The notes under the pieces are model-generated. The model was not told where the DNA came from. It saw only the letters and a program-made list of their open reading frames with translations, and did no database searches. The position numbers were made by a program, and so were the translations under genes. This document shows, in pieces, positions 31,286-33,495 of a DNA stretch of 64,000 bases (within the stretch, counting starts at the first letter, position 1; each line of letters opens with the position of its first letter). Source of the DNA: a virus; the IMG/VR virus record IMGVR_UViG_3300045988_117858, positions 16,865 through 80,864 of that record. One strand, 5' to 3'.

Positions 31286-32746
31286 ATGATTGAAGTAATT
31301 GGAACAGTGGTACCAGTGGTTATTGCGGTAGGTGGCGTAGGAGCTATTATCGGTAGCGGTTATGTCAAAGCAAGTCCAGATAAAGCTTATATTATTTCTG
31401 GACTTAGAAAGACACCTAAGACATTAATTGGTAAGGCAGGGTTAAAAATCCCATTCTTTGAAAAAGCAGATCATCTTAATCTTGAGTTAATTCCAATTGA
31501 TGTTAAGACATCAAGTTCTGTGCCTACAGCAGATTATATCAATATCAATGTAGATGCAGCGGTCAATGTAAAGGTTAGCAGTAATCCAGAAAGATTAAAA
31601 CTTGCAGCAGAAAACTTCTTAAATAAGCCAGTAGGCGATATTGGACAGGTCGCAAGAGAAGTCCTTGAAGGTAATATGCGAGAGATCGTTGGAAAGATGA
31701 GCCTCGAAGAAATGGTTTCTGATCGTCAGAAATTTGCACAGCTTGTTACAGAAAATGCGAAGCCAGACCTTGCTGCAATGGGATTAGATATCATCAGTTT
31801 TAATGTGCAGAATTTTATGGATGATAATGATGTTATTGAAAATCTTGGTGTAGATAATGTTGTTAAAATTCAGAAGAAGGCTGCAATTTCCAGAGCTGAA
31901 AGCGAAAGAGATATTGAAAAAGCAAAAGCAATGGCTGAAAAAGAAGCGAATGATGCAAGGGTTGAGTCAGAAACAGCGATCGCAGAAAAGAATAACAATC
32001 TGGAAATTAAAAAATCTGAACTTGAGAAGATTTCAAAAGCAAAGAAGGCTGAGGCAGATGCAGCATACAAGATTCAGGAAGAAAAATCACGTAAAGAAAT
32101 TGAAATTGTAACTGCGGATGCTAATATTATGCGTCAGGAAAAAGAAATTGAACTGAAACGTAAAGACGTTGAGGTAACAGAGCAGACATTAGATGCACAG
32201 ATCAAGAAACAGGCAGAGGCTGAAAGATATGCCTCTCAGCAGAAAGCAGATGCAGATTTATATAAGAGACAGAAAGAGTCAGAAGCTAATAAATATGCTA
32301 AAGAAAAAGAAGCTGAATCTACAAAATATGCTATGGAACAGGAAGCTGAAGGTATCCGTGCGAAAGGTGTAGCAGAAGCTGAGGCGATTAAAGCAAAAGG
32401 TATTGCTGAAGCAGAAGCGATCGAAAAGAAAGCCGAAGCTATGAAGCAGATGGGTAAAGCTTCTATCGTCGAAATGATGTGCCAGATGTTCCCAGAAGCA
32501 GTTAAAAATGCAGCTGCGCCATTAGGAAACGTAGGAAGTATCACTATGTATGGAGAAGGCAATACAACAAAATTAACAAAAGATATTATGAATGTTGTGA
32601 ATCAGGTATCAGATGGTGTTAAAGGATCTACAGGTGTTGATCTTGCAAAGATGTTGAAAGATTTTGTTTCTGAAGATAAAGAAGTAGAGTTTACAGATAA
32701 TGAAAATCTTGGAACACCAGAGCCAGCAGATTACCGTGAGTTCTAA
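31286..32746 (+). CDS. flotillin-like SPFH/band-7 protein
   Basis: N-terminal TM helix, SPFH core, long EA-rich coiled coil (AEAEAIKAKGIAEAEAIEKKAEAMK) and C-terminal flotillin tail; AAAGGAGA RBS. Confidence 0.8.
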   Translation: MIEVIGTVVPVVIAVGGVGAIIGSGYVKASPDKAYIISGLRKTPKTLIGKAGLKIPFFEKADHLNLELIPIDVKTSSSVPTADYININVDAAVNVKVSSNPERLKLAAENFLNKPVGDIGQVAREVLEGNMREIVGKMSLEEMVSDRQKFAQLVTENAKPDLAAMGLDIISFNVQNFMDDNDVIENLGVDNVVKIQKKAAISRAESERDIEKAKAMAEKEANDARVESETAIAEKNNNLEIKKSELEKISKAKKAEADAAYKIQEEKSRKEIEIVTADANIMRQEKEIELKRKDVEVTEQTLDAQIKKQAEAERYASQQKADADLYKRQKESEANKYAKEKEAESTKYAMEQEAEGIRAKGVAEAEAIKAKGIAEAEAIEKKAEAMKQMGKASIVEMMCQMFPEAVKNAAAPLGNVGSITMYGEGNTTKLTKDIMNVVNQVSDGVKGSTGVDLAKMLKDFVSEDKEVEFTDNENLGTPEPADYREF

Positions 32747-32760
32747 TAGGAGAAATTATT

Positions 32761-33495
32761 ATGGCAATTATTATTATTTGTGTAATTGTAGCAATTATCG
32801 CATATTTACAATTTACTAAAAACGGAAAGCAGATTAAAAATGTGGCATCTGGAACAGTTACAGAAAAGATCAAAGAAAATGCAATGACTCCAGAGGGAGC
32901 AAGAGCCAGATATAATACTGCAATTAAAGAGAAACAGGACTTTTATAAGAAAACAATGGGTACATACACAACGGTAGCTGGTAGATTGGCAACAATGGAA
33001 GATGATCTCAAAGAAACAAAAGAAGAAATTTCTAAAACCGAGGCAATGATCAACCAGTACATTGATAATCATGATGATAAAAAAGCAATGTATTATGCTC
33101 AAAAATTAGCCACGCTAAAGGCACAGAAATCAGTGTACGAAAAGAAAATCCCAGAGTTGCAATCCACAAAAGATAAACAAGAAGAAATTAAAAACCAAGC
33201 GTATGATCAGCTCATTAAGCTAAAAAGCGAAAAAGATACTGTGGTTCTTCAGATGGAGGCAGATCAGCAGATTGCAGAATTGCAGAAAAATTTAGATCAA
33301 TACAATAGTTCAAATGCTGCTCAGGAAGGTTTGGAAGAGGTTCGAGAAGGAGCAAAGAAACTTAGCGAACAAGCCAAAGGCGTTGCTATTGCGTATGAAT
33401 CTAGTGCAGAAACATTGGATTATCATATGGAGCAAGAAGAGCGACAGCAAGAAGCTAAAGCCATATTAGATCAGATGAAAAATGCTCGCAAATAA
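32761..33495 (+). CDS. membrane-anchored coiled-coil protein, PspA/IM30(LiaH)-like
   Basis: N-terminal TM helix then about 200 aa of heptad coiled coil with PspA-like segments (TPEGARARYNTAIKEKQD; HDDKKAMYYAQKLATLKAQ). Confidence 0.4.
   Translation: MAIIIICVIVAIIAYLQFTKNGKQIKNVASGTVTEKIKENAMTPEGARARYNTAIKEKQDFYKKTMGTYTTVAGRLATMEDDLKETKEEISKTEAMINQYIDNHDDKKAMYYAQKLATLKAQKSVYEKKIPELQSTKDKQEEIKNQAYDQLIKLKSEKDTVVLQMEADQQIAELQKNLDQYNSSNAAQEGLEEVREGAKKLSEQAKGVAIAYESSAETLDYHMEQEERQQEAKAILDQMKNARK

Follow-up and report, generated by a model that had tools for sequence, protein, structure and literature searches.

Why would a bacteriophage carry a flotillin gene, and why is this gene directly followed by one coding for a relative of PspA? 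These questions are raised by a locus in a 64,000-nucleotide (nt) stretch of viral DNA (positions 16,865 to 80,864 of IMGVR_UViG_3300045988_117858), referred to below as the window, whose numbering is used for all coordinates. In this locus a flotillin open reading frame (ORF; 31286-32746) is followed on the same, plus strand by a second one, termed here ORF2 (32761-33495); both have the boundaries assigned in a preliminary description made from the sequence alone. The two genes were treated there as a pair attached to an adjoining group of nicotinamide adenine dinucleotide (NAD) genes. The comparisons presented here suggest another arrangement, in which ORF2 is the old part of the locus and the flotillin gene a newcomer to an exchangeable slot in front of it.

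ORF2 and the PspA/IM30 superfamily

ORF2 had been described as a 244-amino-acid (aa) protein with one N-terminal transmembrane (TM) helix and a body resembling PspA/IM30, and both attributions are borne out by hydrophobicity, family profiles and a structural model. Residues 2-18 form the sole hydrophobic stretch (Kyte-Doolittle value of 2.9); the remainder is charged, with E, K, A and Q amounting to 44%. In the AlphaFold model, helices 44-102 and 106-182 form a hairpin with predicted local distance difference test values above 90, beyond which two helices (187-206 and 216-243) are modelled with low confidence. The region 32761-33495, suspected earlier to encode a fold of the ESCRT-III type, is therefore predicted to contain the long α1-α2/3 hairpin of ESCRT-III and PspA, followed by helices α4/α5, and a Foldseek search with the model placed Vipp1/PspA at the top.

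Taken singly, the window sequence matches the PspA/IM30 model PF04012 with 15.4 bits (E 0.015), under the gathering cutoff of 33.9 bits; the match, though weak, runs end to end (profile positions 29-217 of 220). A phmmer search with this single sequence found nothing in PDB, and family profiles alone reach Vipp1/PspA. PF04012 is matched in one register by 16 of 17 close and mid-distance relatives (best E 7.8e-11; scores of 24.9, 25.7 and 29.8 bits among relatives, and of 42.4 bits, above the cutoff, for the homologue in locus L003), and 56 of 96 diverse family members match it individually at E <= 0.01 (best 6.6e-13), in full-length register. When the profile of all 96 sequences was compared with PDB, Vipp1/PspA came first (E 4.1e-8 over ~160 residues) and made up 11 of the 12 top hits, tropomyosin-type and generic coiled coils being about four orders of magnitude worse. 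Alignment of the family with a Vipp1 fragment by hhalign gave a probability of 70.6% (E 3.9e-5). Judged from these profiles and from the model, ORF2 belongs to the PspA/IM30 (bacterial ESCRT-III-like) superfamily, as a divergent member anchored by a TM helix.

The manner of membrane attachment sets the family apart. A TM helix occurs in 95 of the 96 members and is followed by a net charge of +2.3, which predicts a cytoplasmic PspA body. Because the family alignments start at residue 22-28 of the Vipp1 chain, past helix α0, the TM helix replaces this amphipathic, membrane-sensing element; no amphipathic membrane-binding α0 was found in ORF2, whose N-terminus is the hydrophobic TM helix.

An exhaustive profile search (E <= 1e-3) yielded 458 representatives at 50% identity, nearly all of ~245 aa and matched end to end, so that the family forms a compact clade. 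Relatives of ORF2 were found in 241 IMG/VR contigs; gp247 of Bacillus phage G is another, and some of the contigs bearing relatives reach 560 kb. By this distribution ORF2 is an old, conserved phage gene. Among the phage copies, its ratio of nonsynonymous to synonymous substitution rates (dN/dS) is 0.035-0.10, and that of the flotillin 0.04-0.06 (dS ~0.15-0.24 for both), values which indicate that strong purifying selection has maintained both genes within the phage lineage.

The flotillin gene and the slot it occupies

The flotillin is full-length, as had been proposed, with an N-terminal anchor, an SPFH/Band_7 domain and a Flot domain containing AEAEA repeats. The anchor is the only strongly hydrophobic stretch (17-aa Kyte-Doolittle values up to 2.26); Pfam matches comprise Band_7 (PF01145; 85.1 bits, E 7.8e-24) and a borderline Flot domain (PF15975; 27.7 bits against a gathering cutoff of 27), with AEAEA at aa 363 and 374. 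The NCBIfam FloT model NF058507 was matched with 298.5 bits (E 1e-88), under its equivalog cutoff of 700 bits, so the protein is best classed as a member of the flotillin family rather than as a FloT equivalog. A PHROG scan assigned it to no meaningful family.

ORF2 lies close behind this gene, as described before, at a distance of 14 nt rather than 15, and its ribosome-binding site (AGGAG) is placed 8 nt before the ATG. No terminator was predicted by a terminator scan from the NAD genes through the end of ORF2, the spacer between flotillin and ORF2 included, and on this ground we infer that the two genes are co-transcribed. The short spacing together with the lack of a predicted terminator between the genes supports their reading as an operon.

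Since a megablast search of 27000-35000 against the INPHARED phages gave no match, close relatives were sought in metagenomes. Over the flotillin/ORF2 locus the window shows 100% identity with viral contigs of ~160 kb in IMG/VR, among them IMGVR_UViG_3300045988_120055, and related phage contigs contain flotillin copies with 94-99% identity. In sister phages with flanks nearly identical to those of the window (96-99% for the nicotinamide phosphoribosyltransferase, NAMPT; 90-100% for the helix-turn-helix, HTH, regulator), the position of the flotillin is held by a P-type cation ATPase of ~870 aa, a vWA-TerF-like protein and TerD, with the PspA-like gene directly next. Blastn homology with these TerD-type sisters extends across the AAAGGAG before the flotillin, stops at 31291, 6 nt inside the flotillin ORF, and resumes at the stop codon (32744-32751); the 1.46-kb flotillin ORF thus precisely replaces ~4.1 kb.

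The PspA-like gene was present in every locus compared (78 IMG/VR loci plus others), and the content of the slot varied: flotillin in ~37 loci, ATPase-TerF-TerD in ~14, ATPase followed by two or three TerD genes in ~40, and nothing in one (L032). The last of the three gene orders is that of more distant phages, in which the PspA-like protein is 35-42% identical. A TerD gene stands immediately upstream of the PspA-like gene in ~55 related loci; this is not so in the window, where tblastn found no homologue of TerD, TerF or the ATPase anywhere in the 64 kb, nor do Ter-type contigs turn up among the flotillin-bearing ones. In a neighbour-joining tree, PspA alleles linked to flotillin are nested inside the ATPase-TerF-TerD clade, which means that the association with flotillin is derived. 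In terms of sequence history, then, flotillin and PspA do not form an ancestral pair: the flotillin is a recent, dispensable accessory swapped in for ATPase-TerF-TerD, and the PspA-like gene is the old conserved core.

The region next to the slot is variable as well. The NAD genes had been linked functionally to the flotillin/PspA pair; in L024 and 12 more loci, flotillin and PspA are retained and the NAD module is exactly missing. When L024 is compared with 27223-30876 of the window, ~1 kb of other sequence is found instead of the module, and the rest is 96-97% identical. By these alignments the NAD module is a second, independent presence/absence cassette adjoining the flotillin slot, and the supposed link between the two is not upheld.

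Two unusual PspA alleles were recorded. P0023, found on three contigs, is a TerD::PspA fusion of 359 aa (L019, 6001-7080) which joins a full TerD domain (aa 1-188) to the PspA-like part from residue ~74 and has no TM helix. It may have arisen by deletion or may represent a functional Rosetta-stone fusion, and we treat it as suggestive only. P0003, which adjoins a flotillin, is chimeric, so recombination occurs within the PspA-like gene.

Several loci contain split genes. In L060, otherwise of the window type, the PspA-like ORF is divided in two; this interruption and those of the flotillin ORF in L022, L038 and L126 are maybe frameshifts or assembly errors and, if real, would reflect occasional gene decay. 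In L182 (1585-5258), a 220-aa ORF without a Pfam match separates a 621-aa N-terminal part of the phage Ca2+ P-type ATPase from a 258-aa C-terminal one (Cation_ATPase_C); an intron, an intein or the insertion of a mobile element may account for this.

Origin of the phage flotillin

Longibaculum muris and Coprobacillus have chromosomal flotillins ~70% identical to that of the window, which in all probability was taken from this host group (Erysipelotrichales, Longibaculum/Coprobacillus-like). The preliminary description allowed that the pair might be a captured host gene pair of the yuaF/floT type. We reject this possibility, as the Longibaculum flotillin belongs to a unit of PadR, HAAS, an 80-aa protein and flotillin, followed by a radical-SAM gene, and has no PspA-like neighbour. 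It follows that the phage took the flotillin ORF alone and not a gene pair, and that the gene, acquired as a bare ORF, was uncoupled from the PadR-HAAS stress regulation of the host.

The same unit was seen in the Longibaculum-like contigs L005-L008 (3746-6458), where both HAAS and the 80-aa protein bear TM helices. HAAS-PadR pairs were proposed to be envelope-stress signalling units (Ravi et al., PMC11237479), and in these contigs such a pair is linked to a flotillin.

Flotillins were found on ~100 IMG/VR contigs, and PspA-like genes are known from Jug phages (PMC12880540) and phage ME3; together with the 241 contigs bearing relatives of ORF2, these occurrences do not agree with the earlier view of such proteins as unusual phage cargo. 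We considered whether the pairing of flotillin with PspA recurs independently in phages and rejected this idea, because the hidden Markov model of the ORF2 family hits only loci of the window type among 79 flotillin loci. We also considered as phage flotillins those of MT836322 and MT839823, two records labelled 'Bacteriophage sp.' whose flotillins show 51-53% identity. Around the flotillin of MT836322.1 (L004; 'UNVERIFIED: Bacteriophage sp.'), however, ORFs resembling Lgt, YbaK, GreA and beta-glucosidase were recognized from their translations, and this scaffold looks like a bacterial chromosome rather than a phage.

Relation to known systems

Coupling of PspA to SPFH proteins, TM-bearing PspA homologues, phage pspA-like genes next to terD and the annotation of a PspA/IM30 protein in a phage (Acinetobacter phage ME3) are all already known. 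It was shown previously that in Bacillus subtilis PspA reaches the membrane only with the help of the SPFH protein YdjI (PMC8581546), and operons of PspA with band-7/flotillin genes recur in bacteria (Ravi et al. 2024, PMC11237479). The locus in the window resembles pspA-ydjGHI (samGHI) and these PspA-band-7 operons in that a PspA/ESCRT-III-like effector gene stands beside an SPFH/flotillin gene, adjacent to it on the same strand and within operon distance. It differs from them in being on a phage and in having the flotillin gene first; moreover, the phage PspA has its own TM anchor and is devoid of α0, and would therefore not need to be recruited to the membrane. Unlike YdjI, which is soluble, the phage SPFH protein is a classical flotillin composed of a TM anchor, Band_7 and Flot. 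Among the flanking genes scanned, none encodes CesT/Tir, a YqiJ/YuaF (NfeD) protein with three TM helices, an AAA+ ATPase or a YdjG/YdjH partner.

The architecture of the phage flotillin is the same as that of FloT/FloA, which have an NfeD partner (yuaF-floT). In contrast to yuaF-floT, no NfeD/YuaF-type gene adjoins the phage flotillin, whose neighbours are a PM0253-like gene upstream and ORF2 downstream, and none was seen beside the Longibaculum copy; transcription of the phage gene would also be under phage control. With canonical PspA, LiaH and Vipp1 (IM30), ORF2 shares the α1-α2/3 hairpin with further helices and the family match along the whole PF04012 model. It departs from them in that α0 is replaced by the TM helix and a conserved linker (ASG...TPEGA), in the lack of PspBC/PspF or LiaIFSR partners, and in that the phage clade is compact and divergent.

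The closest parallels come from phages. In Jug phages, terD and an adjacent pspA-like gene are transcribed as an operon, and highly so in the gut (PMC12880540). Such TerD-PspA-like cassettes, found also in the sister loci L013-L020 and L050-L098, contain the same TM-PspA family at the end of a membrane/ion-stress cassette and likewise occur in large gut phages, the closest examples sharing the flanking genes of the window; the window differs from them in having one flotillin ORF in place of TerD, TerF and the Ca2+ ATPase. Another relative is present in the gp243-gp250 region of Bacillus phage G, where gp247 is a homologous TM-PspA, 25% identical over 91% of the query. Ravi et al. (PMC11237479) counted TM-bearing homologues associated with ABC and PBPB-OmpA genes as PspA. 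In phage G and among these TM-bearing PspA/Snf7 homologues, the partners are an ATP-binding cassette (ABC) permease, an ABC ATPase and NMT1/OmpA, unlike in the window; phage G-like genomes, as well as L003 and L183, have the TM-PspA gene between ABC-transporter and NMT1/OmpA genes, and PspA proteins from this context form an outgroup clade in the PspA tree.

Our literature search, which was not exhaustive, found no description of a flotillin-TM-PspA operon on a phage, of a gene-precise exchange of flotillin for Ca2+-ATPase/TerF/TerD before one PspA gene, or of the compact TM-PspA clade as such.

Proposed function and alternative explanations

What could such a pair do for the phage? We give somewhat more than an even chance to the possibility that flotillin and ORF2 constitute a phage-encoded membrane-maintenance operon. 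Its conserved effector would be a PspA/IM30 (ESCRT-III-like) polymer permanently tethered at the cytoplasmic face of the host membrane by a TM helix, in place of the stress-sensing amphipathic α0, and hence not reliant on stress-sensing recruitment by the host. A single phage transcript would yield both proteins. The flotillin scaffold might organise or fluidise membrane patches, on whose inner leaflet the tethered PspA would polymerise, seal leaks and hold the proton-motive force. The infected cell could thus stay energised while a phage of at least ~160 kb completes its long cycle, in spite of harm done by injection, superinfection, bacteriocins, leaky holins or defence effectors that attack the membrane. 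We infer that the two proteins cooperate physically, for which the Bacillus system is a precedent, and that membrane maintenance is their physiological role.

Several observations weigh against this proposal. The flotillin is dispensable in some genomes: its gene is exactly absent from L032 and split in L022, L038 and L126, and truncated forms of 356 aa exist. Some 50 phage flotillins elsewhere stand beside no PspA-like gene, their commonest neighbours being metallophosphatase, AAA, PhoH, PRTase and methyltransferase genes; the phage flotillin of MT835492 and the host flotillin likewise lack a PspA-like neighbour, so a recombination hot spot could have brought the two genes of the window together by accident. 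The idea of strict co-adaptation between PspA alleles and their partners, which we also considered, is weakened by the position of the chimeric P0003 next to a flotillin. Accordingly, the main competing explanation is that the genes are chance neighbours, the flotillin being an independent host-derived moron and each protein acting alone. The slot is indeed hypervariable, as is the adjoining NAD module, and the contexts of the other flotillins listed above are unrelated. Yet the linkage between the PspA-like gene and the cassette that the flotillin replaced is tight and ancient, up to the fusion in P0023, so that the slot appears to hold partners of PspA; experiments in Bacillus have established SPFH-PspA cooperation (PMC8581546), which recurs in operons of bacteria (PMC11237479), and the 14-nt spacing fits an operon. 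On balance, mere coincidence seems to us unlikely, though it is the alternative to be taken most seriously.

Two further explanations concern the purpose of the pair and the identity of ORF2. The locus might be dedicated to counter-defence or exclusion: it would neutralise membrane-disrupting abortive-infection effectors (pore formers, or TM effectors of CBASS, which signals against phages through cyclic oligonucleotides, and of the Pycsar system), block superinfecting phages or pore-forming bacteriocins, or provide a PspA decoy for the Cap2-mediated conjugation of cyclase to PspA, by which type II CBASS is regulated. The hypothesis offered in the preliminary description, protection from pore-forming abortive-infection effectors or premature holin action, is close to this and is kept here as a hypothesis. 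Such a role is in keeping with the implication of ter operons in phage inhibition and colicin resistance (PMC8123226), since the sister cassette has TerD/TerF, with the conjugation of a CBASS cyclase to PspA in B. subtilis (PMC11153139), and with the location of the pair in an accessory region adjoining NAD-salvage genes. Nevertheless, in neither protein was a defence-related domain found, the NAD module comes and goes independently of flotillin and PspA, and the sequence gives nothing to separate counter-defence from general membrane maintenance; as a dedicated function it appears distinctly improbable. We find it very improbable that ORF2 is no functional PspA at all and acts as a generic membrane-anchored coiled coil, e.g. 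in lysis timing, as a membrane-bound scaffold for replication or assembly, or as a regulator of the upstream transporter. The sub-threshold Pfam score of the window protein, the empty single-sequence PDB search and the missing canonical α0 would fit this explanation, but the family evidence is consistent and specific, both in the full-length PF04012 matches and in the sequence and Foldseek searches headed by Vipp1/PspA, and TM-bearing homologues from the ABC/OmpA context have already been accepted as PspA (PMC11237479).

Returning to membrane maintenance, a bolder version of it may be considered. To our knowledge, the function of the TerD family has been unclear for decades. The upstream partners of the PspA-like gene all deal with membranes or ions, whether as a Ca2+ pump accompanied by TerD/TerF, which bind Ca2+, as an ABC transporter together with OmpA-domain proteins, or as a flotillin scaffold. 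Flotillin and Ca2+-ATPase/TerF/TerD might then be interchangeable front ends for a tethered ESCRT-III-like repair polymer, with TerD as a Ca2+-responsive recruiter or regulator of PspA at the damaged membrane. This idea is rather improbable as it stands; if true, the membrane repair by ESCRT-III that Ca2+ triggers would have a counterpart in prokaryotes and viruses, installed by large phages to keep infected cells intact.

If the proposed maintenance function is correct, large gut phages carry an always-on membrane-repair machinery and exchange its partner modules as cassettes. The three states of the locus (flotillin, Ca2+-ATPase/TerF/TerD and empty), set in near-identical flanks, offer a natural experiment on what flotillin and TerD do for PspA, and a TM-anchored PspA clade without α0 may be useful for dissecting how ESCRT-III-like polymers engage membranes. 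As a candidate phage function, holding the host membrane potential could affect the outcome of infection, superinfection and resistance to membrane-targeting defence.

Neighbouring genes and other features

The window is, by its gene content, phage DNA: it encodes PolC-like DNA polymerase, DnaB, RecJ-like, exonuclease V-like and Ant-like proteins, all on the plus strand. A domain scan of the upstream NAD module recognized an isochorismatase-family gene, a weakly phosphoribosyl pyrophosphate synthetase-like gene, NAMPT and NAD synthase. The pair does not lie directly downstream of this module, as had been stated, because a 110-aa gene intervenes. This PM0253-like gene is kept whichever cassette comes next and is outside the swapped segment; the Pfam scan found no match in it, and its label comes from precomputed hits. 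Coordinates of the features are collected in Table 1. The hairpin behind ORF2 probably marks the end of the plus-strand unit.

Table 1. Features of the flotillin/ORF2 locus (window coordinates)
Feature	Position	Strand	Remarks
PM0253-like gene, 110 aa, phrog_20678	30888-31220	+	Upstream flank, between NAD genes and flotillin
Shine-Dalgarno-like AAAGGAG	31273-31279	+	6 nt before flotillin ATG
Flotillin gene, 486 aa	31286-32746	+	N-terminal anchor aa 1-27, Band_7/SPFH aa 50-207, Flot coiled coil aa 355-427
Intergenic spacer, 14 nt, with AGGAG at 32748-32752	32747-32760	+	Homology to sister phages resumes here
ORF2, TM-anchored PspA/IM30-like protein, 244 aa	32761-33495	+	Conserved core gene of the locus
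Codons of N-terminal TM helix, aa 2-18, then K20/K23/K26	32764-32814	+	Predicted topology N-out/C-in
Codons of PspA-like body, aa 44-243	32890-33489	+	Conserved TPEGA helix cap, hairpin, further helices
Perfect 10-bp hairpin	33535-33563		Directly 3' of ORF2; scan scores a minus-strand terminator
HTH_26 (Cro/C1-type) regulator	33744-33962	-	Downstream flank; conserved with both cassette types
Promoter-like site TTTACA-17-TACAAT	33969-33997	-	Divergent, flanks HTH_26 gene
Promoter-like site TTGACA-17-TATATT, TG extension	34029-34057	+	Divergent, flanks HTH_26 gene

Between the HTH_26 gene and the plus-strand genes that follow it, the two strong promoter-like sites stand back to back (33969-34057), which looks like a switch region of the Cro/CI type amid an otherwise one-directional gene array.

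A tRNA-like gene was noticed at 33566-33703 on the plus strand (Rfam RF00005, 46.4 bits), its anticodon arm being split by an AT-rich insert of ~67 nt. ARAGORN with default settings reported no tRNA in any part of the window; when introns were permitted, it assigned to this gene the anticodon ATA and placed the insert at position 32/33. Relatives of both cassette types (L009, L024, L032, L051 and L053) have conserved the gene together with the insert, and in the distant relative L013 four ordinary tRNAs occupy the equivalent spot 3' of the PspA-like gene.

Farther downstream, two adjacent plus-strand ORFs, 35678-36190 (170 aa) and 36207-36740 (177 aa), are clear paralogues, similar at their N-termini (KTIDIS.L.E..Q.L.K.LF...CE) and C-termini (I.KY.FG/FD).

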